Assembly: GCA_963749975.1 (NCBI GenBank)
Contig: CAVVOZ010000009.1
Span: 8,923 to 72,922 of the forward strand
Source: an uncultured Candidatus Rokubacteria bacterium
GTDB taxonomy: Bacteria > Methylomirabilota > Methylomirabilia > Rokubacteriales > DASRDR01
Reading direction: 5' to 3'
Length of the DNA stretch: 64,000 bases
A program made the position numbers and the translations under genes. Each line of letters begins with the position of its first letter. The stretch's first letter is position 1. Below the pieces are notes generated by a model, which was not told where the DNA came from, ran no database searches, and saw only the letters and a program-made list of their open reading frames with translations. Positions 1 through 45,618 of this stretch are shown here, piece after piece.

Positions 1-1184
1 CACGGGGTCCGCTCGAGCCGGACGGGTGGCAGCTCCCGCACGCGTCCGGGAACCAGGCGGCCCACCGTGACGCGAGCCGGCGCGTAGCCGCGGGCGGTGA
101 CCTCCAGGTCGACGCCCTCGACGGGCAGGCCCTTGAACCCGAAGCCACCGCACCGGTTCGAGTCGACCTCGTGTCCGGCCGCCCGGAGGCGTGCCCCGGG
201 CACCGGGTTCCCGCTCGCATCGACCACCCGGCCCTCGACGAAGGCGACGAGGGGCGCGTCGTACACCTGGTCGTTGGCAAAGATCGCGACCCCGCGGAAC
301 CCGGCTCGCGCGCGGAGACCGGCGGCGACCTCGGCCATGGTGGCGCGGAGCGCGGCGACATCCTTCTGCTCGAACGTCGCCAGGCCGATGCGGAGCCCGC
401 GGCCCGGCGGCAGGTTGCGCCAGAGGCGCGCGTCGTCGATGCGGCGCAGGACCGAGGCCGCCGATTCGCCGACCAGCGGGCCGCCCGGATCGCCGTAGAC
501 CATGAGAACGACCTCGTCCAGCTCGACGAGGAACTCGGCCGGTGCGGCGCTCGGCACCTCGGCCGAGAGGTGTCCGAGCCACCACGGCAACGCCGCGCTC
601 AGAGTCAGCGGCGAGGCCGGGGATCCCGCTCGCGTGGCCACCCTTGCCTGGCGGAAGACCTCCTGGAGGCTCCGGGTCGTCGCGGTCCGCTCCTCGGCCG
701 AGGCGCACGGCCAGGCTTCCTCCGAATGGGGCTCGATGTCGAAGTGCAGGCCCGCGAACCCGGGCCGGCCGGCCGCCCGCCGGGCGGCGTGGAAGGCGAC
801 GACGCGCGTCACGCGCTCCACCGCTCCCGCGGGGTCGGCGATCCACGAGGGGTCCTGGAGCAGCATCGCCTCGACCGCGAGCCCGAAGCGCCCGACCGCG
901 CGATCGAGGAGATCGCCGAGGCGCCGGGCGCCGTCGGGGTCGTCGACGAGGAGGCGCGGCCCGTCCTCGACGCTCAGGTAGAGCCGCCCGGCAATCGCGG
1001 CGAAGCGCGCGAGCTGCGCCTCCTGCTCGTCGGGGGTCCAGCGGTTCGCGCCGTACACCCAGATCGCGGCATCCGGCGCCGTCGCCGGCGCGCGCCCGCC
1101 CGGGGCGGGGGCGAGGGGGGCGCAGGCGAGCCCGAGGCCGACGAGCATGAGCGACGCGCCAAGCGCGCCGGGGGTGAGCTGCAC
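1..1184 (-). CDS. secreted hypothetical protein, 3'-partial (runs off window start); C-terminal carboxypeptidase-regulatory-like beta-sandwich
   Basis: Reverse-strand reading from GTG at 1184 (GGAGGG 8 nt upstream; alternative ATG at 1148) gives MQLTPGALGASLMLVGLGLACAPLAPA (signal-like), then ...FHAARRAAGRPGFAGLHFDIEPH... and ...EGRVVDASGNPVPGARL...TARGYAPARVTVG. There is no stop before position 1. It is absent from the ORF track because it is incomplete. Confidence 0.5.
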   Translation of the reverse strand, partial: MQLTPGALGASLMLVGLGLACAPLAPAPGGRAPATAPDAAIWVYGANRWTPDEQEAQLARFAAIAGRLYLSVEDGPRLLVDDPDGARRLGDLLDRAVGRFGLAVEAMLLQDPSWIADPAGAVERVTRVVAFHAARRAAGRPGFAGLHFDIEPHSEEAWPCASAEERTATTRSLQEVFRQARVATRAGSPASPLTLSAALPWWLGHLSAEVPSAAPAEFLVELDEVVLMVYGDPGGPLVGESAASVLRRIDDARLWRNLPPGRGLRIGLATFEQKDVAALRATMAEVAAGLRARAGFRGVAIFANDQVYDAPLVAFVEGRVVDASGNPVPGARLRAAGHEVDSNRCGGFGFKGLPVEGVDLEVTARGYAPARVTVGRLVPGRVRELPPVRLERTP

Positions 1185-1400
1185 GACGGAATCCCTCCAG
1201 TTCCTGGAACTGCGAAGCGGGAACGGGCGTCCAAGACGGCCAAGGCGGCCAAAGCGACGACCAAGGCGAATTGTAGCAAAGGGGGTTCCCGAGACCGCGT
1301 TTTCGGACGGGCGCCCCCTGGGCGCGTCCAGGCCGGTCGAGTAAGATGGTGCCCGCGGCCGCGAGCCGCGTGTGGAACGCCGCGAAGGAGGCCAATCTCT

Positions 1401-3143
1401 GTGGGCGAGCGCGTCGATCCGATCACCGTCTCGGTCATCCAGCACCGGCTCGAGGCCATCGTCCAGGAGATGGGCGAGGCGATGCTCCGCACCTCGTACT
1501 CCCAGATCCTCAACTCGAGCCGGGATTTCTCCACGGCCCTCTGTGACGCCGAGGGCCGGCTCGTGGCCCAGGCCGAGCACGTGCCGATCCACGTCGGCGC
1601 GATTCCCTGGGCCGTCCGGTCCGTGCAGGAGTTTTTCGGAGACCGGGTCCGGCCCGGAGACGTCTATCTCCTGAACGACCCGTATCACGGCAACAACCAC
1701 CTGCCCGACCTCACCGCCTTCGTGCCCGTCTTCGCCCAGCAGCGGCTCGTCTTCTGGTCGATCAACCGCTCTCACCAGAGCGACATCGGCGGCGCGACCC
1801 ACGGCGCCTACAATCCCGGCGCGACCGAGATCTGGCAGGAGGGCCTCCGCATCACGCCGCTTCGCCTGTACGAGGCGGGGGTGGTGCGGGACGACGTGCT
1901 GAAGATGATCGCGACCAACGTCCGCCATCCGCGGGACTTCCAGGGGGACCTCGCCGCGATGATCGGGTCCGCCCGGGTGGGGGAGCGTCGGCTCCTCGCC
2001 CTGCTCGAGGAGTACGGCGCCCCGACCGTCGGGCCGGCGATCGACGCGATCCTCGACGGCGCCGAGCGCCAGGCGCGCGCCTGCATCGCGGCGTGGAAGG
2101 ACGGCGTGTACCGGGGCGAGGCGGTGCTCGACGACGACGGCCACGGGTTCCGGGACATCTACATCCGGGCGAAGGTGACCAAGCGCGGGAGCGACCTCAC
2201 GGTCGATCTCAGCGATTCCCATCGCCAGGTGATCGGCTTCGTGAACTCGTCCTACCCGAACATGCGGTCGGCCGTCGCCATGGCCCTCGCATACCTGATC
2301 GACCCCGAGACGCCGAAGAACGACGGGACGTTCCGCCCGCTCACGGTCATCGCCAAGGCCGGCACGGTCGTGTGGGCGAATCCCCCGGCGCCGCTGACCC
2401 TCTGCACGAACCATTGCGCGCAGGAGATCGCCGAGTCGGTGATCAAGGCCCTGGCGCCCGCCTGCCCGACGCGCGTCCTGGCGGGCTGGGGCCGGCGCTT
2501 CCGCATCGCGATCCAGGGCATGGACCCGCGGAGCGGGCGGCCGTTCATCTGGCACATGTTTCACGCGCGGCCGGGCGGCGGGGCGTCACCGGCGGGCGAC
2601 GGCTGGCCGACCGCAGGGGAGGGCCAGGCGGCCGGCGGCATCAAGTTCGGGAGCGTCGAGGTGACGGAGGTGCGTTTCCCTCTGTTCTTCGCACGACACG
2701 AGTTCCGGCCGGACTCGGGCGGGGACGGGCGGTACCGTGGCGGCCCCGGTTCGATCCTCGAGCTCCATGTGGAGATCGCGGAGCCCGCCCGCGCGAACAC
2801 CGCCGGCGACGGCACGCGCCACGCGCCGTACGGGATCCTCGGCGGGCGGGACGGCCTGCCGCATCGCTACCGGCTGCGCTCCCGCGGGCGCCGAGACCGG
2901 GTGCTCCGGACCAAGGAGGTCGGCGTCGTCGTCCGGCCGGGCGACGTCTTCCTCGTCGAGTCGGGTGGGGGCGGCGGCTACGGCGACCCGCGCCAGCGGG
3001 CGCCCGAGGCCCGCGCCTACGACCGAGAGAACGGCTTCGTCACGCGCCGATCGGCCGCGATCTCGAAGGCGTCCCGCAGGGCTGGGCCGGCGACGGGACC
3101 CGCGCGTCGCAGTCGACGAGTCGCCAAGCGGAAGGCGCGCTGA
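1401..3143 (+). CDS. hyuB: hydantoinase B/oxoprolinase family protein (HyuB-like)
   Basis: GTG at 1401 with AAGGAGG at 1385-1391. N-terminus VGERVDPITVSVIQHRLEAIVQEMGEAMLRTSYSQILNSSRDFSTALCDAEGRLVAQAEHVPIHVGA is typical of HyuB. The 990-aa ORF 171..3143 is an artefactual upstream extension. Confidence 0.85.
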   Translation: MGERVDPITVSVIQHRLEAIVQEMGEAMLRTSYSQILNSSRDFSTALCDAEGRLVAQAEHVPIHVGAIPWAVRSVQEFFGDRVRPGDVYLLNDPYHGNNHLPDLTAFVPVFAQQRLVFWSINRSHQSDIGGATHGAYNPGATEIWQEGLRITPLRLYEAGVVRDDVLKMIATNVRHPRDFQGDLAAMIGSARVGERRLLALLEEYGAPTVGPAIDAILDGAERQARACIAAWKDGVYRGEAVLDDDGHGFRDIYIRAKVTKRGSDLTVDLSDSHRQVIGFVNSSYPNMRSAVAMALAYLIDPETPKNDGTFRPLTVIAKAGTVVWANPPAPLTLCTNHCAQEIAESVIKALAPACPTRVLAGWGRRFRIAIQGMDPRSGRPFIWHMFHARPGGGASPAGDGWPTAGEGQAAGGIKFGSVEVTEVRFPLFFARHEFRPDSGGDGRYRGGPGSILELHVEIAEPARANTAGDGTRHAPYGILGGRDGLPHRYRLRSRGRRDRVLRTKEVGVVVRPGDVFLVESGGGGGYGDPRQRAPEARAYDRENGFVTRRSAAISKASRRAGPATGPARRSRRVAKRKAR

Positions 3144-3144
3144 C

Positions 3145-5188
3145 GTGTACCGGATCGGGATCGACGTCGGCGGTACCTTCACGGACCTGGTCGCCGTGGA
3201 CGAGCGCGGGCGCGTGACCCTCGCGAAGGCGGCCTCGACCCCGCAGGATCAGTCCCTCGGCGTCATGGAGGGGCTCGAGCCTCCTGGCCGCGGCGCTCGG
3301 CTGCGACCGGGCGGCCCTCCTCCGCGACACCGAGCGCATCGTCCACGGGACGACGGTCGCGACCAACGCCCTCCTCGAGCGCAAGGGGGCGCGGGTCGGG
3401 CTCCTCACGACCGCCGGCCACCGCGACGTGATCGAGATGCGGGAGGGGCTCAAGGACGACCGGTACAACCTCCGCATGGCGCCGCCGGAGCCGCTCGTGC
3501 CGCGCGCGCGGCGGCTCGGCATCCGCGAGCGCATGCGCGCCGACGGTCGAGTGGAGACGCCGCTCGATCCCCGCGCCCTCGACCGGGCCATCGCCGACCT
3601 CCGGCGCGCCGGCGTCGAGGCGGTGGCCGTCTGCTACCTGCACGCCTACCGGGACGCGCGGCACGAGCGGGCGACCGAGCGCGCCCTCCGCCGGGCGCTG
3701 CCGGGCGCCTACATCTCGCTCTCCTCGGAGGTCCTGCCCCAGATCAAGGAGTACGAGCGGGTCTGCACGACCGTCGTGAACGCCTACGTCGGACCCGCCC
3801 TCGCGCGCTACCTCTCGCGCCTGGCCGAGCGCCTCGTCCAGACCGGGTACGCGGGGCCCGTGCTCATCATCCAGTCCCACGGCGGCGTGGCCCCGGTTGC
3901 CGACGCCGTGCGCCTCGCCGCCGGGGCGGTCCTGTCCGGACCCGCGGGTGGCGTCGCGGGGAGCCGCTACTGCGCGCGCCTCCTCGGCGAGGGCAATCTG
4001 ATCCCCTTCGACATGGGCGGGACGAGCACCGACATCTCGCTCGTCGAGCACGGCGAGGCGCACCTCTCGCCGGACCGGGCGGTCGCGGGCCAGAAGGTGG
4101 CGCTCCCCAGCCTCGACATCGTGTCGATCGGCGCGGGCGGCGGGTCGATCGCCCGCGTGGACGCCGGCGGCACGCTCCGGGTCGGGCCGGAGAGCGCGGG
4201 CGCCGAGCCGGGCCCAGCGTGCTACGGCAAGGGCGGCACGGCCGCCACCGTGACGGACGCGAACCTGGTCCTGGGCTATCTCGATCCCGGGAACTTCCTG
4301 GGCGGCCGGACACAGCTCGACCTCGGTGCCGCGCAGCGGGCCGTGGACGCGATCGCGGAGCGGCTCGGCACCGAGCGGATGGTCGCGGCCGAGGGCATCC
4401 ACCGGGTCATCAACACGGTGATGGCCGAGGGCATCCGTGTCGTGTCGGTGCGGCGGGGCGTCGATCCCCGGCGGTTCGCGCTGCTCGCCTTCGGCGGGGC
4501 CGCCGCCCTCCACGTGACCGACGTGGCCCGGCGTCTCGAGATCGGGCGCGTCGTCGTGCCGCGGGTCGCGGCCGTGCTCTCGGCCTGGGGGATGCTGGCC
4601 ACCGATCTCCGGTACGAGGCGGTGCGGACCCACATCGGGGACGCGCGACGGGTCGGCGCGGCGCAGCTCCGCCAGGTGTTCGCCGCGATGGAGACCGAGG
4701 GGCGGCGGCGCCTGGCCGAGGCCTTCTCGGGGCCGGTGCGCATCCAGCGCGCCGTGGACATGCGCTACGGCGAGCAGATCTTCGAGGTCAACGTCTCGCT
4801 GGGGGACGTCGACCTCGAGGCGCCCGACGCGATGGCGGAGATCGTCGCGCGCTTCCACAAGCGCCACGAGGAGCTGTACACCTACGCGGCGCCGGACCAG
4901 GAAGTCGTCCTCGTCAACGCGCGCCTGGCGGTGGTGGGAGAGCTGCCGGCGTTGCCCGAGGAGCCCGCGCTTCCCGCGCGGCCGCCCGCGGCGCCCCGCA
5001 GCCGGCGGCGCGTCTACCTCGATGAGTGGCGCGAGGTGCCGGTCTACGATCTCGACGCGGTGGCTCCGGGGCAGGTGATCGCGGGGCCCGCGATCGTCGA
5101 GGCGGCGACGACGACGGCGCTCCTGCGCGCGGGCGAGCGAGCGACCGTGACGCCCCTCGGCTGGCTCGACATCCGCGTCGCGTCGTGA
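3145..5188 (+). CDS. hyuA: hydantoinase A/oxoprolinase family protein (HyuA-like); +1/-2 frameshift near 3278-3285
   Basis: GTG at 3145 gives VYRIGIDVGGTFTDLVAVDERGRV (the HyuA N-terminal motif) in frame 1. The rest (…LAAALGCDRAALLRDTERIVHGTTVATNALLERKG…MGGTSTDISLV…) is in frame 2, ORF 3428..5188. The frames meet at gggctcgagcctcctggcc. Confidence 0.75.
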
Positions 5189-5254: not shown

Positions 5255-6574
5255 ATGGGCACGAAGTTCGACGATCCCGGGTCCCAGTCCCGCGCCTTGT
5301 TCGAGCGGGCGCGGCAGGTCATCCCGGGCGGGACCTCCAAGGCGAACTTCCACGTCCACCCGCACCCGTTCTACCTCGCCGAGGGGCGCGGCTGCCGCGC
5401 GACCGACGTCGACGGGGTCGAGCGGATCGACGCGATCAACAACTTCACGGCGCTGATCCACGGTCACGCCTTCCCCCCGCTCGTCGACGCGGTCAGCCGA
5501 CAGCTCTCGCGCGGCACGGCCTTCGCTGCGTCCACGCCCGAGGAGGTCGCCCTCGCCGAGCTCCTCGTCGAGCGGGTGGCGGGTCTCGAGCGGGTCCGCT
5601 TCGGCAACTCCGGCACCGAGGCGGTGATGATGGCCATCAAGGCGGCGCGGGCCTACACGGGCCGCGACCGCATCGCCAAGTTCGAGGGGGCGTATCACGG
5701 CTACTACGACGACGTCCAGGTGAGCTACAGCTCGCGGCCCGACGACTGGGGGCCGGACGACGCGCCGGCGAGCGTGCCCTCCTCGGGCGGCGTGCCCAAG
5801 CACCGCGTGCTCGAGACGCTGGTCCTGCCCTGGAACGACCCCGACGCCTGCGAGCGGCTCGTGACGCGCCACGCTTCCGAGCTGGCGGCGGTGCTCGTGG
5901 ATCCCCTGGCGAACCGCATGGGGTTCATCCCGCCCGCGGACGGGTTCCTCGCGTTCCTCCGGCAGCTCACCCGGCAGCACGGGGTCCTCCTGGTCTTCGA
6001 CGAGATCATCTCGTTCCGCGTCGGCTACCATGGCGCCCAGGGCCGCTACGGCGGGGATCCGGATCTGACCGCCTTCGGCAAGATCATCGGGGGCGGGTTC
6101 CCCGTCGGCGCCACCGGCGGCCGCGCCGAGGTGATGGAGGTGTTCGACCCCGGAACGCGGGGACCGCGAATCGCCTCCGGAGGGACGTTCAGCGCCAACC
6201 CGGTCAGCATGACGGGCGGGCTCGCGACGATGCGCGCGATGACGCCGGCGGCGTTCGATCGCCTGGAGGCGCTCGGGGCCCGGCTGCGCGCGCGTCTCGG
6301 TGAGGTCTTCCGGGACGCCGGCGTGCCCGGCCAGGTGACCGGCGAGGGCTCTCTCTTCCGGCTCCTCTTCACCGACCGGCCGCTCCGCAGCTACCGCGAC
6401 CTCGACCAGGCGGCCGAGGCGCGCATGGAGCGGCTCTTCCTCGCGCTCCTCGATGCGGGCGTGCTGATCCACACGACGGGGCTCGGCTGCCTCTCGACCC
6501 CGATGGGCGACCGCGAGATCGAGGAGATCGCGGTCGCCGCCGAGCGGGCGCTCGGGGTCGTCGGCCGCGGCTGA
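5255..6574 (+). CDS. class III aminotransferase, glutamate-1-semialdehyde 2,1-aminomutase-like
   Basis: 439 aa: VIPGGTSKANF…GNSGTEAVMMAIKAARAYTGRDRIAKFEGAYHGY…DEIISFRVGYHGAQ…GKIIGGGFPVGATGGRAEVM…GGTFSANPVSMTGGLATM. HemL/AT-III family hallmarks including the PLP-Lys region. Confidence 0.85.
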   Translation: MGTKFDDPGSQSRALFERARQVIPGGTSKANFHVHPHPFYLAEGRGCRATDVDGVERIDAINNFTALIHGHAFPPLVDAVSRQLSRGTAFAASTPEEVALAELLVERVAGLERVRFGNSGTEAVMMAIKAARAYTGRDRIAKFEGAYHGYYDDVQVSYSSRPDDWGPDDAPASVPSSGGVPKHRVLETLVLPWNDPDACERLVTRHASELAAVLVDPLANRMGFIPPADGFLAFLRQLTRQHGVLLVFDEIISFRVGYHGAQGRYGGDPDLTAFGKIIGGGFPVGATGGRAEVMEVFDPGTRGPRIASGGTFSANPVSMTGGLATMRAMTPAAFDRLEALGARLRARLGEVFRDAGVPGQVTGEGSLFRLLFTDRPLRSYRDLDQAAEARMERLFLALLDAGVLIHTTGLGCLSTPMGDREIEEIAVAAERALGVVGRG

Positions 6575-9220
6575 CCGCGGGTCGCCGGACCACTCCAGCG
6601 GGCGCTCGATGCTGCGGTCCGACGCGACCGTGGGCCGCCTGGTGCGATCCCGCCCCGTTCACCTCGCGCTGATCGTCCTCGTGGGGGCGGTGCTCCGCCT
6701 TTGGGGCATCCTCCACGGCCTGGCCGACGGCCTCATCTATCACGCCGACGCCCACCTCGCGGTCTGGAGCGCCTGGCACCTCCACCTCGGGGGGCCGCTC
6801 CGGGCCGCCCGGTTCGGCGGGGCGCACGGGGCCCTCAGCTGGCTCGCGCTGGAAGCGACCGACCTCGTGGGGCGGGGAGTGGGCTACCCGCCGCAGTGGA
6901 GCTTCGCGCTGATCGGGAGCGTGCTCGCGCTTCTCACCGCCGTGATGGGCACGCTGACCATCCCGGCCGTGTACGTCCTGGGCGCGCGCGCCTTCGGCCC
7001 GCGGGTCGGGCTCCTGGCGGCGGCGTTCCTGGCGGTCTCGCCGCTTCACAGCTTTCACTCCCACTACCCGTACCGCGACGTCCCCATGGTGCTGGCGCTC
7101 ACGCTCACCCTGGCGGCGTGCGTGAGCCTGGCCGCGCGTCCCGGCGCCGTCGCCTACATCGGCGCCGCCGTCGGCGCGGGCCTCACGGTCGCGCTCAAGC
7201 CGGCTGGTATGGTCGTCGCGGCGCCGCTGGCCACGGCGCTCGCTCTGGCCTGGCGCCGTCGGCGGGCGCCGTGGGTGCTGATCGCGACGCTCGCCCTCCT
7301 GCTCGTGGTCCTGGTGGGAATGAGCGTGTTCCTGACGGGTCACTCGTTCTCGCCGCTCGTGGGAGTGCGCGACAGGTGGCACTTCGCCCGGAACTTCATC
7401 ACGCGACACGGACCGACAGTCACCCACGGCACGGTGCGCGCCCTCGTGCTTCTCGGGGACTGGCTGGGGTGGCCCGCGTTCCTTGCCTTTGGTGTCGGGC
7501 TCGGTGTGGCGGTCTGGCGGCGGCAGCCCGCGGACCTCGTGCTGGCGGCATTCCTCGTGCCGGCCTTCTTTGCGGCCGCCGCCATTCCGTGGATGGACGA
7601 GCGGTTCTTCGTCTACCTGGTTCCACCGGCTGCGGTCCTGCTCGCGCGCGCCCTCCTCGGCGCGGCGGAGCGCGCCAGGAGCCGGCCGCTCGCGCGGGTC
7701 GCCGTCCTCGCGGTGACGCTGGCGCTCCTGGCCGGGGACCTCGGGCGCTCGGCCTGGCAAGGCGTTCTCCTCAGCCTTCCCGACACGCGGGCTCTGGCCG
7801 GCCGCTGGTTCGAGGCCCACGTTCCACGATCGACGCGGGTGGCGATGGAGGGGTACTTTCCGCTCGGGGTCAACGAATGGCCCCAGGCACGCTTCTTCGA
7901 GCCGCGGCGTCCGCTGCCGGAGGCGCTGGCGGCCGCGGACGTCCTCGTCACGAGCTCCCTCGAGCACGATCGGTACCTCGACCCCCGGACGAGGTCCGGC
8001 CCGGCCCTCGGGGCCTTCTTTCGAGCCCTGCCGCAGGAGGCCTCGCTCATGCGGACGCTCGCCCTCGCGCCGCTCGGCTTCGCTCATCCGAGCATCGCTG
8101 TCTACGCCACGCGTCCGCCGCGCGTGGCGGGGGCCCCGGCTCTGTTCCTGCCCCGGCCCTACGACCACACCTGGAACGGCGGCGTGGCGTTTCTCGACCC
8201 CGGCCCCTACGACCGGGATGACCGCACGCTCTTCCTCGGTGGCGCGCAGGTCCACGATGTGATCCTCGCGGGGCCGGCGGCCGTCGACGAGATCGCCGTG
8301 TTCGTCGCCAACGGGCCCGAGCCGAGCCAGGTCCGCATCGAGGTGGGATGGGCGAGCCGGCGGCGTCCGCTCGAGCCGGGGGAGTGGCGCGCCGTCCACT
8401 TCCGGCCGCGCTGGTGGTGGCCGGCCCGCCCCGTCCTCTACCGGGTGACGGTGGCGCTCCTGCCCGAGGGGCGGAGCGCGCTGGTCCAGATCCGGGCCGG
8501 GGCCCGGGAGATCGGCGAGGCGTATGCGGCGTGGAGACGCTGGGACGCTGCCGTTCCCTACCTCGAGCGAACCCTGGCGGCGCGCCCCGGCGACGGCGAG
8601 CTCCTGCTCCTGCTCGGCACGGCGTACCGTCAGCTCGGCCGGGCGGAGGACGCGCGGCGCGTCGGGGCGCGGCTCGAGGCGGAGGCGCCCGGCTACACCG
8701 CCGCCGTCCGCCAGCTGGGGCAGGGCGCGGCGCGTCCCGAGACCTGGACCCCGGCGTTCGAGCGCGCGACGGGACTCGACGCCGCGCTGCTCACGCCGGC
8801 GCTCACCCGGGAGGTGCGCGTCGACGCGATCCTCGCGCAGGGCCGGCTGGGCGGCGACCCGATGACGCCCGGCGGGGTTGCCGCGGTGTTCGAGCGCGGG
8901 ATCGACCGTCCGGGCGTGGTCCTCAACGGACCACGGGGGCCCCGGCCTCTCGTGTACCTCGCCCCGGGCGCGTACCGGGCGCGGTTCACGCTTCGCGGCG
9001 GGGCGGGCAGCGCGGGCCAGGAGAGCGCGGTGCTTCGCGTCTTCGCCGAGCGCCGGCTGTTGGTGACGCGGCCGGTCACGGCGGAGGAGCTCGGCGACGG
9101 CCGGCGCGTCGTGGAGATCCCGGTGCCCTTCGTCCACGATGGACCGCCGACGCCGATGGCCGTCCAGGTCGAGGCGACGGGGCGCGGGAGCTTCGCGGTC
9201 GACCGCGTGCAGATCGAGCC
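5452..9220 (+). repeat. tandem duplication unit, copy 1 (~3.77 kb)
   Basis: Positions 5452-9220 realign with 9248-13017 at an offset of 3796-3797. Over most of the length the copies are ~99.5% identical, differing by scattered substitutions (QWSF/QWTF, YIGAA/YIDAA, HFARNF/HFAWNF, LDAG/LEAG). Confidence 0.85.
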
Positions 9221-9227
9221 TATATAA
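6609..9227 (+). CDS. GT39/ArnT-PMT-like membrane glycosyltransferase with C-terminal TPR region (copy 1; C-terminus cut by duplication junction)
   Basis: Polytopic N-terminal half (many TM helices, [11 protein letters not shown] loop motif) and a soluble C-terminal half with TPR-like [45 protein letters not shown]. It ends IEPI* directly at the AT-rich filler. Copy 2 continues [21 protein letters not shown]. Confidence 0.6.
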   Translation: MLRSDATVGRLVRSRPVHLALIVLVGAVLRLWGILHGLADGLIYHADAHLAVWSAWHLHLGGPLRAARFGGAHGALSWLALEATDLVGRGVGYPPQWSFALIGSVLALLTAVMGTLTIPAVYVLGARAFGPRVGLLAAAFLAVSPLHSFHSHYPYRDVPMVLALTLTLAACVSLAARPGAVAYIGAAVGAGLTVALKPAGMVVAAPLATALALAWRRRRAPWVLIATLALLLVVLVGMSVFLTGHSFSPLVGVRDRWHFARNFITRHGPTVTHGTVRALVLLGDWLGWPAFLAFGVGLGVAVWRRQPADLVLAAFLVPAFFAAAAIPWMDERFFVYLVPPAAVLLARALLGAAERARSRPLARVAVLAVTLALLAGDLGRSAWQGVLLSLPDTRALAGRWFEAHVPRSTRVAMEGYFPLGVNEWPQARFFEPRRPLPEALAAADVLVTSSLEHDRYLDPRTRSGPALGAFFRALPQEASLMRTLALAPLGFAHPSIAVYATRPPRVAGAPALFLPRPYDHTWNGGVAFLDPGPYDRDDRTLFLGGAQVHDVILAGPAAVDEIAVFVANGPEPSQVRIEVGWASRRRPLEPGEWRAVHFRPRWWWPARPVLYRVTVALLPEGRSALVQIRAGAREIGEAYAAWRRWDAAVPYLERTLAARPGDGELLLLLGTAYRQLGRAEDARRVGARLEAEAPGYTAAVRQLGQGAARPETWTPAFERATGLDAALLTPALTREVRVDAILAQGRLGGDPMTPGGVAAVFERGIDRPGVVLNGPRGPRPLVYLAPGAYRARFTLRGGAGSAGQESAVLRVFAERRLLVTRPVTAEELGDGRRVVEIPVPFVHDGPPTPMAVQVEATGRGSFAVDRVQIEPI

Positions 9228-9247
9228 TATAATAATAAAACTTACGG
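9221..9247. other. 27-bp AT-rich junction filler tatataatataataataaaacttacgg between the two duplication copies
   Basis: ~10% GC in a ~70% GC context. It sits exactly between the end of copy 1 (…gatcgagcc) and the start of copy 2 (gctgatcacggtcacgcc…). Confidence 0.8.
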
Positions 9248-14061
<4,814 letters not shown>

Positions 14062-17075: not shown

Positions 17076-17804
17076 GTGCAGGACTTCCCGTACAAGCGCG
17101 AGGTGGGATCGGTGGCCCTCGATTCGGTCCTCATCGTGGTCGCCTACTACGCGGCGTACCTCCTGCGCTTCGAGGACACATTCGCGGCCAACAAGCCCAT
17201 GCTGATCCGCACGCTGGCGCCGGTCCTCGTGTGCCAGCTCTCCGGGCTGGCCCTCTCGGGGGCGTACCGGGGGATGTGGCGATACACGGGCCTGGGGGAC
17301 GTCCTGCGGCTCGGGCGGGGGATCACGCTGGGCACCGTGGCGAGCGTCCTCTACCTCCTGTTCACGACGCGGTTCGCCGGCCTGTCGCGCGCCGTGTTCG
17401 TGCTCGACTGGGTGTTCCTCGCGATGCTGGTCGGCGCGAGCCGGGTGTCGTTCCGGCTGCTCGGCGAGGCGCTCCGGGCGCCCCGCGCGCGGCCCGGCCG
17501 GTGCTCGTCTACGGTGCGGGCGACGGCGGGGAGCTGGCGCTCCGGGAGCTCCGCAACAACGCCGCGCTCGCTCGGGACGGCGTGGGGTTCATCGACGACG
17601 ACCGGGCGAAGGCGGGCACGCGCATCCACGGGGTGCCCGTGCTGGGCCCGCTCGACGAGCTCGAGGCGCTGCTGCGGGCGCACCCGGTCGAGGAGGTCGT
17701 CGTCGCCTCGCGCAAGATCCCGACCGAGCGGCTCCGTCGCCTGGAGGCGAGCCTGCGCCGCGCACGGGGTGGTGGTGCGGCGCGCATCGATCGAACTCGA
17801 GTGA
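17076..17804 (+). CDS. membrane protein with CoA-binding Rossmann-like domain, homologous to the N-terminal module of PglF/WbpM/CapD or WbaP but lacking any catalytic domain; two frameshifts (~17485, ~17757)
   Basis: GTG 17076. VQDFPYKREVGSVALDSVLIVVAYYAAYLLRFED plus 4 TM helices are in frame 3. VLVYGAGDGGELALRELRNNAALARDGVGFIDDDRAKAGTRIHGVPVLGPLDELEALLRAHPVEEVVVASRKIPTERLRRLEA is in frame 2. The tail ACAAHGVVVRRASIELE* is back in frame 3. Confidence 0.5.
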   Translation: MQDFPYKREVGSVALDSVLIVVAYYAAYLLRFEDTFAANKPMLIRTLAPVLVCQLSGLALSGAYRGMWRYTGLGDVLRLGRGITLGTVASVLYLLFTTRFAGLSRAVFVLDWVFLAMLVGASRVSFRLLGEALRAPRARPGRCSSTVRATAGSWRSGSSATTPRSLGTAWGSSTTTGRRRARASTGCPCWARSTSSRRCCGRTRSRRSSSPRARSRPSGSVAWRRACAAHGVVVRRASIELE

Positions 17805-17876
17805 GCGTGGAGCCGCCGCCCACGCGGCGGGCGCGCGTCCGGGTCACGGGGATCGCCCCGGACACGGAGCGCGTCC
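17574..17876 (+). repeat. diverged direct repeat A (3' end of the CoA-binding-module gene plus a 35-bp segment of a UDP-sugar dehydrogenase N-terminus)
   Basis: 17574-17804 is ~85-90% identical to 20112-20342. 17842-17876 (ggtcacggggatcgccccggacacggagcgcgtcc) matches 20543-20577 with 3 mismatches. Confidence 0.7.
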
Positions 17877-17922
17877 AGGTCCTCCTCCATGACCGGCTGC
17901 GCGCTCAAGGACCGGCCCGGCG

Positions 17923-19689
17923 TCACTCGGCGGCCCGAAACAGCTCCTCGCCGCGCTGAAGACGCAGCGCAATCTGGTACGTCTGACGCAGCGCCCGCGG
18001 GGTCGGGCTGTGCGCCGCCTGGAAGCGCGCCAGGGCGACCAACGCGCGGCGAGCGGACGCCGGACGTGCGGCCTTGAGAGCCCCATACTGGCGCAGCGCG
18101 CCCTCCAGCTCCTGGTAGTCGTGGAACCCCGCGTCCTCCCGCAGGACGGCACGGCCGAGGCTCTCGATCATCGGCCGATCGTCGCGGCCGGGCCGGAGGT
18201 AGGCGTCCACGAGGCGGCCAGCGGAGGTCACCTGCTGCTCTCGATCGAGGAGCTCCAGCAGAGCCGCCGGCGCGTCGGCCGCCCCCGGCGGGACGGCGTC
18301 GACGGGCTCCTCGTCGGGGAGGCGGGTCGGCGGCACGTTCAGGAACCGATCCAGGTAGATCCTCATCGCGGCGTGGAACAGCCCGCGCGCCAGCTCGCGC
18401 GAGGGCGCTCGGAGCAGCGCCTGGTGGAGGGCGTTGCACGAGCTGAACGTGTTGTGGACGGTGTCCCAGTCGCCGAACTCGTTGCTGGTGGGGAACCGGG
18501 CGATCCGGAGGCTGCTGGCATGCGCCACGGCCTGGCCGAGCTCCGCGAGGGCGGCTCCCCGGCGCACGGCCATGAGGAGCCCGTCGACGATGGACTGGGG
18601 CTCGTCTCCCAGCAGAACCGCCACGAGTTCGTCGAATTCACCGGCGCGCAGCGGTGCTCCGCGGCTCGCCTCGTCCTCGGCGAGCGCCCCGAGCGTCTCG
18701 AAGGCGGGCTCCAGGAGGGCGGTCAAGTCGATCGGCCGCCGCCACGCGCTCCGTTCTTCGCTTCGCTCAGCGCGACACAGGCCGCTCACGACGCTCGGCA
18801 AGATCGCCGGCGCCTCGGTCCAGTCGAGATGATCCAGGAGCTCGAAGGCCTTGACGATGAAGTCCAGCGTGTGGCCGGCCTCGACGAAGTAGTGGTCGGT
18901 GACGGCCGCGAACAGAAGATCGGCCACGGCGGCCGGCGACGCCGTCTCGATGGCCGTGCGGAGCGCCCGCTCGGCGCCGTCCGCATCGCGTACCTCCACC
19001 GCGTCCCGGAACCAGGCTTTCAGCCGGGCCGGCGGTAGGCGGGTTGTGGGCAGGGGGTCGACACCGAAGCGCGGCGGCCGTCCGGCGCAGTCCTCGGCCA
19101 CTCGCACGAGCCCGTGGAAGAGCGCGAGCGGCCGCTCGTCCGCGCCCAGCATTGGCAGGACATTCGCCATCGCGGTCAGGATGCTGAGGCCGGGGCCCCA
19201 GCCGGCGGCGCGGTAGCGGGCACCGAAGCGGGCCCCCGCGCGCACGATCTCCCGGAGATCGGCGCCTCCGGCAACGAGGGCGAGGGCGGCCTTGGCCAGC
19301 CCGAGGGCGAGCTGGTCCTCCAGCCCCTGCTCGAGCCGGCGCCGCCACTGCGCTGCCAGATTACCGTCCGGGCTCACCTCGACGAACACGTCGCCGCCTT
19401 CGATGACCGTCGGATAGGGCCGCACGTCCCCCGCGAAGGGATCCAGGGTCCCGCCCGAAGCCAGGTCGAATCGGGCGTGATGCCAGTGGCAGGTCAACAA
19501 CCCGTCACGCACCGTTCCCCGGCTGAGCGGAAAGCCCATGTGCGGGCAACGGTTGTCCACCCCCCACGCTTGGCCCTCGTGCCAGAATACAGCCACGCCG
19601 TGACCGCCGGTGCTGACGATCAAGCACCCCTTCGCCTTCAGTTCGTCGACGGAGCCCGCGCGGACCAGGCGGGACTTGGCCTCACTCAT
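17923..19689 (-). CDS. Rieske [2Fe-2S] domain protein with ~470-aa C-terminal domain of unknown function
   Basis: ATG at 19689 with a GAAGGGGGG purine tract upstream. MSEAKSRLVRAGSVDELKAKGCLIVSTGGHGVAVFWHEGQAWGVDNRCPHMGFPLSRGTVRDGLLTCHWHHARFDLASGG carries the CxH…CxxH Rieske ligands. The remainder is helical with no recognised family. The track ORF 17923..20178 over-extends the N-terminus. Confidence 0.7.
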   Translation of the reverse strand: MSEAKSRLVRAGSVDELKAKGCLIVSTGGHGVAVFWHEGQAWGVDNRCPHMGFPLSRGTVRDGLLTCHWHHARFDLASGGTLDPFAGDVRPYPTVIEGGDVFVEVSPDGNLAAQWRRRLEQGLEDQLALGLAKAALALVAGGADLREIVRAGARFGARYRAAGWGPGLSILTAMANVLPMLGADERPLALFHGLVRVAEDCAGRPPRFGVDPLPTTRLPPARLKAWFRDAVEVRDADGAERALRTAIETASPAAVADLLFAAVTDHYFVEAGHTLDFIVKAFELLDHLDWTEAPAILPSVVSGLCRAERSEERSAWRRPIDLTALLEPAFETLGALAEDEASRGAPLRAGEFDELVAVLLGDEPQSIVDGLLMAVRRGAALAELGQAVAHASSLRIARFPTSNEFGDWDTVHNTFSSCNALHQALLRAPSRELARGLFHAAMRIYLDRFLNVPPTRLPDEEPVDAVPPGAADAPAALLELLDREQQVTSAGRLVDAYLRPGRDDRPMIESLGRAVLREDAGFHDYQELEGALRQYGALKAARPASARRALVALARFQAAHSPTPRALRQTYQIALRLQRGEELFRAAE

Positions 19690-19877
19690 CCGGTCGCCCC
19701 CCTTCAGGGAATGGTACCCCGACAGGACCTCACTCGGTTCCGCCCGCCCCGCGCGGCGGGGCGTCGCTTCGCGCCGGCCTCCACCCAGCCCCGGCGCGAG
19801 CCGCTGCCCGAACTCGCCACCGAGCGGTCCATCGTCCGGTGTCGGACGGACCCGGAGATCCGTTGCCCGCCACGCCG

Positions 19878-20090
19878 TTACGGACGGTCGATGGTGAGAT
19901 CCCGCCGGGCCGGGCCGATCGTCACGGTGAATCCGGCGATCAGGTCGAGGAAACTCGTGACGGTGAGCACCAGGAAGACCCCGGCCCCGGCCGCGTTGAC
20001 CAGCAGAAATTCGGTGAGGTAGGCGGCGAAGACGCCATCGTGGATTTTCCTCCACGCGGCGCTCCCGAACGGCGGCGCAGAGGCTCGCAC
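19878..20090 (-). CDS. small hydrophobic ORF (70 aa), possible membrane peptide or gene remnant
   Basis: MRASAPPFGSAAWRKIHDGVFAAYLTEFLLVNAAGAGVFLVLTVTSFLDLIAGFTVTIGPARRDLTIDRP with a TAA stop. It lies 190 bp upstream of the Rieske gene on the same strand. No family recognised. Confidence 0.25.
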   Translation of the reverse strand: MRASAPPFGSAAWRKIHDGVFAAYLTEFLLVNAAGAGVFLVLTVTSFLDLIAGFTVTIGPARRDLTIDRP

Positions 20091-20111
20091 CGCACCGTCC
20101 CTGGGCGACCC

Positions 20112-20342
20112 GGGACGTGCGGGGGTTCATCGACGACGACCGCACGAAGGCGGGCACGCGCATCCACGGGGTGCCCATGCTGGGCCCGCTCGACGAACTG
20201 GAGGCGCTGCTGGGGGCGCACCCCGGTCGAGGAGGTCGTCGTCGCCTCGCGCAAGATCCCGACCGAGCGGCTGCGCCGTCTCGAGGCGACCTGCCACGCG
20301 GAGGGGGTGTTGATGGTGCGCGCCTCCGTGCGCCTCGAGTGA
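20112..20342 (+). pseudogene. diverged second copy of the 3' end of the CoA-binding-module gene (direct repeat B, part 1)
   Basis: …GFIDDDRTKAGTRIHGVPMLGPLDELEALLGAHP / VEEVVVASRKIPTERLRRLEATCHAEGVLMVRASVRLE* is split over two frames. It has no N-terminal membrane domain. Confidence 0.5.
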
Positions 20343-20414
20343 GGAGCCGGCCGCTAACGGCGAGGCCGGCGCTTCCTTGACACCCCGCAAGGGGCCGTCA
20401 ATAATGACGCGGCG

Positions 20415-20699
20415 ATGACGAACACGGCGCCCCTGGGGGCGTTGGGAGCGCGCTTAACCGACGGACGTGCGGCGATCGGTGTGGCCGGGCACGGCTACGT
20501 GGGGCTGCCCTTGGCCGTGGAGCTTGCGCGCGCAGGATTCTCGGTCACGGACATCGCTCCGGACACGGAGCGCGTCCGGAGCGCCGGCCGGGATGAGAAC
20601 CACGTCGAGTGGCTCGTGACGCACGCCCGGCTCGTGTTCGACACGCCGAACGCCACGCGCGACGTCAGAGTGGCTCGGACCAGGGTCGTCCGGCTCTGA
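20415..20699 (+). pseudogene. N-terminal remnant of a UDP-sugar 6-dehydrogenase (TviB/WbpO/Ugd family)
   Basis: IGVAGHGYVGLPLAVELARAGFSVTDIAPDTERVRSAG matches the NAD-binding N-terminus (GxGYVGL…) of UDP-sugar dehydrogenases. It degenerates after ~60 codons and contains repeat B part 2 (20543-20577). Confidence 0.45.
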
Positions 20700-27583: not shown

Positions 27584-29043
27584 GTGTCCTCCATGGCAGA
27601 ATCCGTTCGCGTCCGCTTCGCGCCGAGCCCGACCGGGCACCTTCACGTCGGAGGGGCGCGGACGGCGCTCTTCAACTGGCTGTTCGCCCGCCATCACGGC
27701 GGGGTCTTCCTCCTCCGGATCGAGGACACCGACCGCGACCGGTCGACCGACGAGGCGATCCAGCAGATCCTCGGCGCGATGACCTGGCTCGGGCTCGACT
27801 GGGACCCGGAGGGCCCGGAGGACGACGGCGCGTACCGCGGGTACTTCCGGCAGACCAGCCGGTTCGAGATCTACCGGGCCCACGCCGAGCGTCTCCTCGC
27901 CGAGGGCCGGGCCTACCGCTGCTACTGCACGCCGGAGGAGCTTGACGCGCGGCGGGAGGCGGCCCAGGCGCGCGGGGAGACCTTCCGCTACGACGGCCGC
28001 TGCCGCGACCTCCCGCCTCGTCCCGGCGTGCCCGCGGCGCTCCGGCTCCGGATCCCGGACGCGGGCACGACGGTCGTGCCCGATCTGATCCACGGGGACG
28101 TGACGTTCGACCGCGCCACCCTCGACGACTGGATCCTCGTCCGGTCGGACGGGACGCCGACCTACAACTTCTGCGTGGTTGTCGACGACGTCACCACGAA
28201 GATCACCCACGTGATCCGGGGCAACGACCACCTCTCGAACACGCCGAAGCAGATCCTCTGCTACGAGGCGCTCGGGTACGCGCAGCCGGTGTTCGCCCAC
28301 ATCCCGATGATCCTCGGCCCGGACCGGAAGCGCCTGTCCAAGCGCCACGGGGCGACGTCCGTCCTCGCGTTCCGGGACGAGGGGTTCCTGCCCGAGGCGA
28401 TGGTGAACTACTTCGCCCGGCTCGGGTGGGCCCACGGGGACCAGGAGGTCTTCACCCGGGACGAGCTGATCCGCCTCTTCGACCTCCGGCAGGTCGGCGC
28501 CACGCCGGCGATCTTCGACCGGACGAAGCTCGAGTGGCTCAATCAGGTGTGGATGAAGCGGCTCGTCGAGGATCTGTCCGGTCGCAAGCGCCTGGCCGAG
28601 AACTTCTTCATACATCTGCAGGGGGCCGAGATTGAGAATCCGCCAATGCGCTTGGTCGAGAGCGCAGTCGTCAATCTGACGACGCGGGCGACGACGCTCG
28701 CCGCCATGGTCCCGAAGGCGCGGTTCTACTTCGAGGACCCGACGGACTACGACCCGACCGCGTTCGGGAAGCTGGTGACGCCGACGCTCGGGCCGCGCCT
28801 GGACCGGCTCCTCGCTCGCCTGACGAGCCTCGAGCCCTGGGACGGAGACCGAGCTCGAGGGCGCGTGCCGGCAGCTCGTCGGTGAGCTCGGTGTGAAGCT
28901 GGTCGATCTCGCGCAACCGATCCGCCTCGCGCTGACGGGCGAGACCGCGAGCCCCCCCATCTTCGGGATCATGGCCGACCTGGGATCGGGAGACGGCGCT
29001 GCGCCGCCTCCGGGCGTTCCGGGCTCGCGTGCCGCGGGCGTAG
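27584..29043 (+). CDS. gltX: glutamate--tRNA ligase; two frameshifts near 3' end (~28850, ~28988)
   Basis: HIGH motif PSPTGHLHVGGARTALFNW and KMSKS motif KLSKRHG. The C-terminus continues in frame 3 (TELEGACRQLVGELGVKLVDLAQPIRLALTGETASPPIFGIMADLG), then frame 1 (RETALRRLRAFRARVPRA*), with TAG at 29041-29043. Confidence 0.85.
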
Positions 29044-29051
29044 GCGCCACG

Positions 29052-29675
29052 ATGGAGCTCTGGCTGGTGCGGCACGGCGAGTCCACCTGGAACTCGGTCG
29101 GGCGCTTTCAGGGCGGGCTCGACGCCCCGCTGTCGCCCCGCGGCCACGCGCAGGCCGCGGCCCTCGCCGCCGGACTCACCCAGACCCGGTTCGACGCGCT
29201 CTACACGAGCCCGCTCCGCCGCGCGCGCGACACGGCCGGGGCGTGCCGGCCCGCGCTCGGCCTCGAGCCGGTCGCGATGGATGACTTGCGGGAGGTCGGG
29301 CTGGGCGCCTGGGAGGGCCTCACGCTCGAGACGGTGCTGGCGCAGGACGGGGAGCGCTACCGGCGCTGGCTCGAGGCGCCCGTCGACCACCCGCCCCCCG
29401 GCGGTGAGCCCATGGCGGGTCTCGCGACGCGGGTGCGGACCGCGCTCGACGGGCTCTGCCGTCGGCACCCCGAGGGGCGCGTGCTCGTGGTCTCGCATGG
29501 AGGCGCGATCTCGAGCGCCCTCTGCGGGTGGCTCGGCCGGCCGCTCAACGCGATCTGGTCGCTCAGGCTCGACAACGCATCCATCACCCGTGTCGTGCTG
29601 CCGGCGGGCCAGCTGCTCGCGCTGAACGAGACCGGTCACCTGGCCGACGTCGCCAGGGAGACGGTCGCCCCGTGA
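29052..29675 (+). CDS. histidine phosphatase family protein (phosphoglycerate mutase/alpha-ribazole phosphatase-like)
   Basis: MELWLVRHGESTWNSVGRFQGGLDAPLSPRGHAQA…VVSHGGAI carries the RHG catalytic motif. Confidence 0.75.
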   Translation: MELWLVRHGESTWNSVGRFQGGLDAPLSPRGHAQAAALAAGLTQTRFDALYTSPLRRARDTAGACRPALGLEPVAMDDLREVGLGAWEGLTLETVLAQDGERYRRWLEAPVDHPPPGGEPMAGLATRVRTALDGLCRRHPEGRVLVVSHGGAISSALCGWLGRPLNAIWSLRLDNASITRVVLPAGQLLALNETGHLADVARETVAP

Positions 29676-41639: not shown

Positions 41640-43356
41640 ATGACCGACCGCGTCATCCCGGCCAGCGCTCCGGCCGGGGCTCCGGGCGACCCTGCGATCG
41701 AGCCCAGCGTTCGCATCCTCCCGCTCGGCGGCCTCGGGGAGATCGGTCTCAACATGATGCTGCTCGAGTCGGGCGAGGATCTCCTGGCCGTCGACTGCGG
41801 GCTCATGTTCCCGGACGACGAGATGCCCGGGGTGGACTACGTCATCCCGGACTTCTCGTACCTCCTGGCGAGGCGCGAGCAGGTGCGCGGGGTCATCCTC
41901 ACCCACGCCCACGAGGACCACATCGGGGCGCTCCCGTACCTCCTGCGCGAGCTCGACGTCCCGGTGTACGGGCCCCGGATGGCGCTCGCCCTGGCCGGCG
42001 AGCGCCTGCGCGAGCACGGCCTCCTGGACCGCGCCCGGCTCGTTCCGGTCGAGCCCCGGCGCGCGTTCGACGTCGGCGGCTTCCGGGTGGAGCCGATCCG
42101 GGTGACCCACTCGGTCGTCGACGGCCTCGGCTACGGCATCGAGACGCCGGTCGGCACCCTCGTCCACACGGGAGACTTCAAGTTCGATTCGAACCCGATC
42201 GACGGCGAGCGCTCGGACTATCATCGCCTCGCCGAGCTCGGCGAGCGCGGCGTCCTCTGCCTGATGGCCGACTCCACGAACGTCGACCGGCCGGGCACCA
42301 CGCCGTCCGAGCACGAGGTCGGGCGCGCGCTGGGCGACCGGTTTCGCCGCGCCCCCGGGCGCGTCATCGTCGCGACCTTCGCCTCGCACGTCCACCGCAT
42401 CCAGCAGGTCCTCGACCTCGCCGCCACCTTCGGGCGCAAGGTCGCGCTCCTCGGGCGGAGCATGGAGACCAACGTGCGCCTGGCCGCGGAGCTGGGCTAC
42501 CTCCGCGTGCCCGACGGGACGCTCCTGTCCCTCGAGGACCTGTCGGCGCTGCCGCCCTACCGACAGGTGATCATCTCCACGGGGAGCCAGGGCGAGCCGA
42601 ACTCGGCCTTGGCCCTCATGGCGGCCGCGGAGCACAAGTACCTGCGCGTGGGCGAGGGTGACCTCGTGATCCTCTCCGCCCGCGTCATTCCGGGCCACGA
42701 GCGCACGGTCACGCGCGTGGTCAACCAGCTCCTCCGCCAGGGCGCCGAGGTCCTGTGGGAGGAGGTGGCGTTCGTCCACGTCTCGGGCCACGCGTCGCAG
42801 GACGAGCTCCGGCTCATGCTGAGCCTCGTCCGGCCGCAGTTCTTCATCCCGGTCCACGGCGAGTACCGGCACCTCCTGGCCCACGGCCGCCTGGCGCAGG
42901 AGGTGGGGCTCCCGGCCGAGCACGTCTTCGTCGTCGAGGACGGGCAGGGGCTCGAGCTCACCAAGACCGGCGCGCGCGCGCTCGAGCGCGTTCCCCTCGC
43001 CCGCGTGCTGGTCGACGGGAAAGGGGTCGGCGACGTGGGGCCGGTGGTGCTCCGTGACCGCCAGCTCCTCGCCGAGGACGGGATGGTCGTCGTCGCCGTG
43101 ACCGTGGATCGCGCGCACCGGCGCGCTCGTCGCGGGGCCGGAGATCGTCTCGCGGGGCTGGGTCTACGAGCGCGAGGCCGAGGCCGTGCTGGAGGAGGCG
43201 AAGACGGCGGTCCGGGAGGCCCTCGCCGCGGAGCGGAGCGAGTCGCCGCTCGGGCGCGAGGCCCTGGTCGCTCTCCTCCGCGGCACGCTCCGCCGCTTCA
43301 TCACCCAGCGGTACGACCGGAAGCCGATCGTGCTGCCGGTGGTCCTGGACGCCTGA
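41640..43356 (+). CDS. rnj: ribonuclease J; 1-bp insertion frameshift ~43110
   Basis: …VRILPLGGLGEIGLNMMLLE…ILTHAHEDHIGALPYL… (MBL fold), …VHVSGHASQDEL… (RMMBL). The C-terminus resumes in another frame (…TGALVAGPEIVSRGWVYEREAEAVLEEAK…VVLDA*) and ends at TGA 43354-43356. Confidence 0.85.
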
Positions 43357-45618
43357 TGGCGAAGGCCCGGCCCCCCAAGCCCAAGATCGCCGCGCGGTGG
43401 CTCCGCGAGGCCCAGGGCGTCGTCGCCCTCGGGCTCGCCGCGTACCTGGGCGTCGCGCTCCTGTCCTACGACCCGGCGCTCCGCTGGGTGGACCAGGAGG
43501 CCCGCGTCGGTGTCGTGGGGCTCTGGGTGGGATGGGCGCTCTTCACGACCGTCGGCTACGCCGCCTACCTCGTTCCGGTGATGCTGATGGTGTGGGCGTT
43601 CGCGGCGTTCACGCGGCCGCTCGCCGTGGGGACGCTCTCGATCTCGCGTCGGGGCCGCGCTCGGGCTCCTGGCCGTCACGGGACTCCTGGCCCAGCTCTC
43701 GGGGCCGGTGCGCGGCGTCTGGCTCCACCGGGGCGGGTGGCTCGGCTGGGCCGTGGCGGGGACGCTCCGCCGCACCCTGGGTGACGTGGGCGCGCTGGTG
43801 TTGCTCCTCACGCTCATGGCGGTCGCGGGCCTGTGCATCACCCAGGCATCCTACGCGGGCCTCTCGCGGGCATTGATCACCCGCCTGTCCGGGCTCGCGC
43901 GTCTCGGCCGGGGGCGCCGGCCGGCGGCTCGCGCCGCGGCCCCCGCCGCGCCGGCCCCGGTCGTCGTCGAGCCGCGTCCGGCGCCGCCGCCGCCCGCCAT
44001 CGCGCTGCCCCCCGAGCTGCCGCCGCCGGTGGCCGCGGAGCGCCTGCCGGACCGCGCGCGCGCCCGGAGCGAGGAGCGGCCGCGGCCATCGGCGGACCGG
44101 GCGGCGGCGGGCGAGGAGCGGCCCCGCTCGGCGGAGGCCCGCCGCGCGAAGCAGGAGATCTTCGGGTTCGCCCGCCCCGGCGCCACGTTCCAGCTGCCGC
44201 CCGTGTCGCTCCTCAAGGCGCCGGTGGCAGGAGAGCGTCGGCGCACCGAGAGCGAGGAGGAGCTCCGCCAGAACGCCGAGCACCTCCGGAAGCGGCTCGA
44301 GGACTTCGGGGTCAAGGGGCACATCGCGCGGATCAACCCGGGGCCGGTCATCACGGGGTACGAGTTCGAGCCGGGGCCCGGGATCAAGGTGAACCAGGTG
44401 GTGAACCTGGCGGACGACCTCGCGCTCGCGATGAAGGCCGGCGCGGTCCGCGTCTTCGGGCCGGTGCCCGGGCGGGGGAGCGTCGCCATCGAGGTGCCGA
44501 ATGCCGAGCCCTCCACCGTGTCCCTCCGCGAGATCCTCCTCTCGAAGGAGTTCAAGGAGTCGAAGGCCCCGCTGGCCCTCGCGCTCGGGCGCGACGCGAT
44601 CGGCCAGCCGGCCGTCGCGGACCTCGCGTCGATGCCGCACCTCCTCGTCGCCGGGGCGACGGGGGCGGGCAAGTCGGCCGGGCTCAACGCGATGATCTGC
44701 TCGATCCTCTTCCGCCGCACCCCCGCCGAGGCGCGCCTCCTCATGATCGATCCGAAGCGCCTGGAGCTCGGGATGTACGAGGGGATCCCGCACCTCCTGG
44801 CGCCGGTCGTGACCGATGCCAAGGAAGCCGCCTCCCGCCTCCGGTGGATCGTCGGCCGGATGGACGATCGCTACAAGCTCCTCGCGGAGAAGTCGGTCCG
44901 GAACATCGAAGGCTACAACCAGGCGGTCGAGCCGGCCGAGCGCCTGCCCTACTGGATCATCATCGTGGACGAGCTGGCCGACCTGATGATGGTCTCGGCC
45001 GGGGAGGTGGAGACCTCGCTCGCGCGGCTGGCACAGATCGCCCGCGCGGTGGGGATCCACCTGATCATCGCGACGCAGCGCCCCTCGGTCGACGTGATCA
45101 CGGGTCTCATCAAGGCGAACTTCCCGGCGCGGATCGCCTTCCAGGCGGCGTCGAAGGTGGACTCGCGCACGATCCTCGACCAGAACGGCGCCGAGCAGCT
45201 CATCGGCCGCGGCGACATGCTCTTCGTGCCGCCGGCCACCTCCCGCCCGGTCCGGATCCACGGGGCGTGGGTCTCGGAGCCGGAGGTCCGCGAGGTGGTC
45301 CGCTTCCTCAAGGAGCAGGGCCAGGCGGTCTTCGAGGAGGGCCTGGTCAAGCCCATCCGCGACGAGCGGGGCGGCAACGGGGGCGGCGGCGAGGACGACC
45401 GCGACGACACCTACTGGCGCGCGGTCGAGCTGATCGTGAGCCAGAAGCAGGCGTCGATCAGCTTCATCCAGCGCCGCATGGGGCTCGGCTACCCGAAGGC
45501 GGCGCGCTTCATCGACCTCATGGAGCAGGATCGCATCATCGGTCCCGGCGACGGCGCCAAGCCGCGCCAGATCCTCGTCGGTCCCGAGTACCTGCTGCGC
45601 CGCTCCGGCTCCCACTGA
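43356..45618 (+). CDS. ftsK: DNA translocase FtsK; 1-bp deletion frameshift ~43648
   Basis: ATG 43356, overlapping the rnj stop as TGATG. N-terminal TM region, Pro/Ala-rich linker, then …LVAGATGAGKSAGLNAMI… (Walker A) …IIVDELADLMMV… (Walker B) and the C-terminal gamma domain …YWRAVELIVSQKQASISFIQRRMGLGYPKAARFID…. Confidence 0.85.

Follow-up and report, generated by a model that had tools for sequence, protein, structure and literature searches.

The most A/T-rich segment of the analysed window (that is, the whole 64,000 nt stretch of DNA), at positions 9,221–9,247, is most likely a technical artefact rather than a biological feature. With a rough probability of 80%, the copies of a false tandem duplication meet at this segment, in an error-prone and probably long-read metagenome assembly of a Rokubacteria/Methylomirabilota genome, where we infer both the platform and the falseness of the join. 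If so, then the actual genome would contain a single aminotransferase-GT39 unit, and two overlapping pieces of this one locus, most likely derived from two co-occurring strains, would have been set end to end without being merged. A chimeric or under-split long read and an unmerged contig overlap are both possible routes to such an arrangement. The second piece would open with the start of a read or contig that was badly base-called, and polishing would have failed at the join because genuine reads would not span it. In the actual genome, position 9,220 would continue into GGATCTGCCC, and CCGTTC into TACCTCGCCGAGG.

As read directly from the window, positions 9,221–9,247 are tatataatataataataaaacttacgg, and the join region as written (within 9,150–9,300) is TATATAATATAATAATAAAA. 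The 27-mer contains four G or C (4/27, 14.8%), and the 20 nt at 9,221–9,240 consist of A and T only (0% GC). The 500-nt flanks have GC contents of 77% (left) and 73% (right), in a window with a GC content of approximately 73% (66–77% across 1-kb bins). No other 27-mer of the window is as low in GC, with the next non-overlapping site holding ten G or C. A TAA at 9,225–9,227, inside the A/T stretch, closes the reading frame of the first GT39 copy (...VQIEPI, then stop). An earlier note on this DNA had described an AT-rich 27-mer at a duplication join, unmatched elsewhere in the window and supplying the stop of that gene; all three descriptions hold, and the sequence that it gave is exact.

The duplication is a tandem direct repeat of approximately 3.8 kb, and it and all features of the locus described below are on the forward strand. 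Copy 1 (5,372–9,220; 3,849 bp) begins at codon 40 of a class-III aminotransferase gene and stops 20 codons short of the native end of a GT39/TPR gene, and copy 2 is recognisable from 9,239 and ends at 13,017. Offsets of 3,795–3,797 nt give long identical runs from 5,459 to 9,220. A gapped alignment of the copies over 3,776 aligned nt contains 31 mismatches and seven 1-bp indels, and the copies are approximately 99.2% identical (0.8% divergence). Microhomology at the join does not exceed 1 nt (a C at both 5,371 and 9,220).

Comparison with copy 1 accounts for the segment in full: it is a corrupted version of the opening ~70 nt of copy 2 and holds no foreign base. All 33 nt at 9,221–9,253 occur in the same order within the 87 nt at 5,372–5,458, of which they form an exact subsequence; the 54 bases left out are G or C without exception, and each A and T is preserved in its order. 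When all G and C were removed from the copy-1 upstream sequence and the remainder was compared with the skeleton of the filler, the A/T skeleton of 5,372–5,458, TATATAATATAATAATAAAATTATAT, was the same in 26/26 letters as that of 9,221–9,253. This 26-letter skeleton has a single match in the window, both strands considered (chance expectation ~4e-4 per window), and this sole match lies directly against the repeat unit, at the very place where a continuation of the repeat is expected. The G/C-stripped stretch proper (9,221–9,240), which holds the TAA, corresponds to 5,372–5,442 minus all 51 G and C. The last 9 nt of the 27-mer, aacttacgg, equal copy 1 at 5,441–5,450 minus one C and, in the alignment, are part of a copy-2 start (aacttacgg-gctgatc-acgg) that equals AACTTCACGGCGCTGATCCACGG of copy 1 minus three C. 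The template (5,372–5,458) is aminotransferase coding sequence (…YLAEGRGCRATDVDGVERIDAINNFTALI…) that is conserved in the relatives, with 96.6% identity to the relative L001, and thus the genuine version is the one that contains G and C. The earlier note had placed a filler between the repeat copies; its position at the join stands, but it is not a separate insert, since its last 9 nt belong to copy 2 and the rest, before aacttacgg, derives from 5,372–5,440 of copy 1.

The defects form a one-sided gradient. Left of the join the sequence is clean, with the final 278 nt of copy 1 identical to copy 2, and copy 1 keeps its frame over its whole length and is colinear with the relatives. Right of the join, 51/51 G and C are lost over template positions 5,372–5,442, followed by three C in 13 nt (single-C deletions within 9,241–9,253), so that the G/C loss drops abruptly from 100% to ~20%. 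The degraded start of copy 2 (9,241–9,381) differs from copy 1 and from the relatives by indels and a substitution: farther right of the join, there are three indels (1 bp each, at 9,287, ~9,346, and 9,381) and one substitution in ~130 nt, after which the sequence is indel-free for 3,530 nt. The substitution, at 9,377, is nonsynonymous, and all relatives side with copy 1. The clean body of copy 2 (9,382–13,017) carries 30 substitutions relative to copy 1, and its only indel is a 1-bp insertion at 12,912. Overall, the quality of copy 2 recovers over ~160 nt to the right of the join, and at all seven indels it is copy 2 that is aberrant and copy 1 that agrees in frame with the relatives. The gradient looks like the start of a badly called read or contig.

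Based on Pfam domains and GC3, the locus encodes, in order, hydantoinase B (171–3,143), hydantoinase A, a class-III aminotransferase, a PMT_2/GT39 protein with TPR, an NAD-dependent epimerase (start ATG at 13,114), and asparagine synthase. The aminotransferase gene at 5,255–6,574 (PF00202) is intact, and its second copy (9,254–10,370) is 5'-truncated and frameshifted. The first copy of the GT39-like (PMT_2) + TPR gene (6,609–9,227) ends prematurely in the A/T stretch, whereas the second (10,405–13,075) has the native C-terminus but is shifted out of frame by the insertion at 12,912, an additional C that turns GTGGAGATCCC into GTGGACGATCCC. As written, there is no intact copy of GT39, the first being short by 20 aa and the second frameshifted. 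The native end, ...ALGG followed by a stop, is found both in the relatives and, when the frame is shifted, in copy 2 (TGA, 13,073–13,075). An ORF of 1,218 aa spanning PMT_2, TPR, and epimerase (10,405–14,061) was considered as a true fusion and rejected, since it is produced by the 12,912 insertion and the genes are separate in the relatives. Similarly, the ORF at 2,737–5,025 was not accepted as encoding hydantoinase A, since a 1-bp insertion at ~3,279 makes it read through mostly out of frame; the true frame continues at 3,428–5,188.

Related sequences carry the locus once. In a genome scan, seven Candidatus Rokubacteria/Methylomirabilota MAG contigs matched the GT39 protein with 74–91% amino acid identity, and the order HydB-HydA-AT-GT39-epimerase-AsnB is single-copy and colinear in 7/7 of these loci, except that L004 has no aminotransferase match and L007 has no epimerase match. 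In a metagenome scan, five contigs share the 24-mer immediately left of the join; all five run on into the native GT39 C-terminus, and in none of them is the 24-mer followed by the A/T stretch. The closest of the five (L012; 96% nucleotide identity) aligns to copy 1 without gaps and therefore lacks the extra base at 12,912. The duplication is thus present in 0/12 of the related contigs (7 MAG and 5 metagenome), none of which is from the same strain. The join sequence itself was not found in metagenome, genome, and viral collections, which do not include the source sample, and exact look-ups of four proteins of the window gave no match.

The differences between the copies point to allelic variation under purifying selection, that is, to two natural alleles. 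Among the 30 coding differences, 18 are synonymous, compared to 26–28% expected at random (P = 2e-4), and third codon positions account for 18 (binomial P = 0.0025). These excesses indicate alleles rather than error or the decay of a redundant copy, and, given the excess of synonymous sites, the 31 substitutions cannot be put down to random sequencing error. Polarisation with six relatives places the ancestral-like base in copy 2 at 20 sites and in copy 1 at five. The 20 sites that are derived in copy 1 are mostly GC-to-AT changes, and 13 are synonymous; within the GT39 gene, 10 of 16 copy-1-derived changes are synonymous (P = 0.004). In bacteria, RecA-dependent recombination removes or homogenises tandem duplications of several kb, and therefore a divergence of 0.8% between adjacent copies is unexpected for a true duplication.

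In another reading, the segment would be foreign (adapter, linker, or vector-derived sequence) or non-templated or captured filler from NHEJ or template switching, and it might act on the copy-2 genes as a promoter or by unwinding the DNA; the earlier note had suggested foreign, adapter, or scaffold-derived sequence, a footprint of these two mechanisms, or such an element. Its A/T content is extreme and unique in the window, and a sigma-70-like match (TCGACC-18-TATAAT, 10/12) lies at 9,199–9,228. However, 33/33 bases are explained by the window's own 5,372–5,458 with G/C deletions alone, and therefore an adapter has nothing to explain. The best local score against 12 adapters and linkers was 9, which is the level of shuffled sequences (mean 8.7, maximum 13); plasmid BLAST gave chance-level matches only, to AT-rich bacterial plasmids (E >= 0.06), and no match to the segment was found among viral contigs. 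The sigma-70-like match arises trivially because the string is A/T-only, and it is moot if the sequence is not genomic; additionally, what lies downstream is an aminotransferase fragment, 5'-truncated and frameshifted, which leaves no meaningful gene to promote. A foreign or promoter-like nature of the 27-mer is therefore highly improbable. A designed six-frame stop linker was also rejected, since one forward frame is free of stops and the sequence is fully explained by 5,372–5,458, as was a consensus blend of sequences colliding at a false join, since the A/T skeleton after 13,017, as read by eye, is unlike the filler. Genuine junction filler is either non-templated or a faithful copy of a template, and what is found here is a copy of 5,372–5,458 minus 54 G and C. 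We know of no repair or replication process that copies a template while skipping all 51 G and C and keeping all A and T, and this argues against the suggested NHEJ or template-switch filler. It is barely credible that the A/T stretch is truly genomic, a polymerase having copied ~70 nt while skipping G and C (e.g., with only dATP and dTTP available); if true, a templated filler with its G and C deleted would be an unknown mutational signature. To our knowledge, no failure of a base-caller or polisher that deletes all G and C and keeps all A and T over ~70 nt has been documented, and channel-specific signal dropout on particular platforms was considered as the cause of the loss but is unsubstantiated. 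What does find support is the broader idea of the earlier note that this segment does not belong to the genuine genome and requires confirmation in the reads.

There are two further explanations. It is unlikely, although conceivable, that 5,372–9,220 was truly duplicated in tandem in this strain and that only the first ~160 nt of copy 2 were mis-called, polishing at a real join having failed because reads map ambiguously to copies that are nearly identical; this join would connect ...GATCGAGCC to ...TACCTCGCCGAGG. The repeat is a clean head-to-tail tandem with one join, the copy differences are genuine biological variants, and the relatives, at no more than 91% amino acid identity, are too distant to exclude a recent strain-specific event. 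A real duplication with a mis-called join would also yield the subsequence relation, the one-sided gradient, and copy 2 as the aberrant copy. Genuine bacterial tandem duplications with junction filler are similarly head-to-tail, with a novel join inside two genes and microhomology of at most 1 nt. They differ from the present case in that the join here is a template copy without G and C, the copies have diverged by 0.8%, and the relatives (0/12 contigs) lack the duplication. Moreover, a true join would have full-depth spanning reads and would polish like the remaining sequence; the combination of 0.8% divergence and purifying selection is unlike an unstable tandem, and is seen even in the truncated GT39 copy (10/16, P = 0.004); and the locus as written has no intact GT39. 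Alternatively, the repeat could come from a circular or merged contig whose overlapping ends were left untrimmed when it was rotated or concatenated, with the degraded part being a low-coverage contig start. The one-sided quality gradient, which starts exactly at the join, and the long-read-type indel errors in the window are in line with this. Nevertheless, a single read pool predicts random consensus errors between the copies, and an enrichment of synonymous differences was found instead (P = 2e-4). A contig overlap of this kind, which we regard as very unlikely, would be a sub-variant of a false duplication rather than a separate class.

A false duplication that joins two strain variants has counterparts among known assembly errors. 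Strain-type variants separate the copies, the join sequence is defective, and the locus is single-copy in related assemblies, which is supportive only. One documented kind of assembly error is the false "heterotype" duplication, in which two alleles or haplotypes end up as neighbouring paralogues (Ko et al. 2022, PMC9516828), and the present case resembles it in its adjacent copies of ~99.2% identity, allele-like differences, defective join, and spurious extra and truncated genes. The published cases concern diploid vertebrates and have N-gaps, whereas here the variants would be those of metagenome strains and the join is stripped of G and C; it has no N-gap and consists of 20 G/C-free nt followed by ~140 indel-rich nt. 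Nanopore reads that are under-split yield chimeras (PMC6596899). Long reads that merge two molecules, whether chimeric or under-split (White et al. 2017, cited in PMC6596899), would create exactly such a direct repeat if two overlapping molecules of one locus were joined head to tail, and the second molecule would open at poor quality; an adapter remnant, however, is absent from the join described here. For ligation chimeras, the abstract of PMC13141652 stresses inverted repeats, whereas the repeat in the window is direct.

Indel errors are not limited to the repeat. At least eight frameshifts are present in the window, some of them in essential genes, and 1-bp frameshifts relative to the intact ORFs of relatives were found at ~3,279, 12,912, ~17,053, ~17,490, and ~21,975. 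Since essential genes would not all be broken in a living cell, these point to residual indel errors such as an unpolished long-read consensus leaves behind. The frameshift at ~3,279 is an extra C in the hydantoinase A/oxoprolinase gene (GAGCCTCC, compared to GAG-CTCC in four relatives aligned at the base level), and the change of frame is evident against five relatives. Those at ~17,053, ~17,490, and ~21,975 are single-base frameshifts judged against three or more relatives, the first being in a homopolymer (C5 in the window, C4 in the relatives). In the RNase J/FtsK region (41,640–45,618), Pfam domains are split across frames at ~43.1 and ~43.7 kb: the RNase J C-terminal domain is cut off, the same ORF enters the FtsK 4TM domain, and the remaining FtsK lies in an overlapping frame. 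Similarly, the anticodon-binding end of an aminoacyl-tRNA synthetase is found at the start of the next ORF (28,893–29,675), with the break at ~28.9 kb. These splits are probable further frameshift errors in essential genes. One of the related MAG contigs (L007; CAVUVU010000002.1, the nanopore-derived Rokubacteria MAG MFD05567) has its aminotransferase in two HSPs and its GT39 in four, as frame-shifted pieces, and appears to have similar residual indel errors.

A second direct repeat is present in the window, at 17,573–17,876 and 20,111–20,577, with arms that are 80–94% identical and contain the 3' end of a GT4/CoA-binding-domain gene twice. Both arms align to the same ~200–300 bp of the relatives, and the ~2.3 kb between them (about 17,880–20,110) are missing at that place in the relatives L002–L007. 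This insert includes an ORF on the minus strand (17,923–20,178) with a Rieske [2Fe-2S] domain. The second repeat may be a true insertion with a duplicated gene end, or a chimeric join with a more distant strain.

In high-GC genomes, comparing the A/T skeleton of an odd low-GC insert with that of its flanks is a simple way to tell damaged native sequence and foreign DNA apart. Should the selective loss of G and C be traced to a particular base-caller or polisher, it would be worth reporting to the authors of that tool. The contig should be flagged as containing a probable false duplication and frequent frameshifts. For the biology of this Rokubacteria locus, the truncated GT39 gene, the aminotransferase fragment, and the 1,218-aa "fusion" should not be taken as a gene gain, a gene fusion, or a new promoter.
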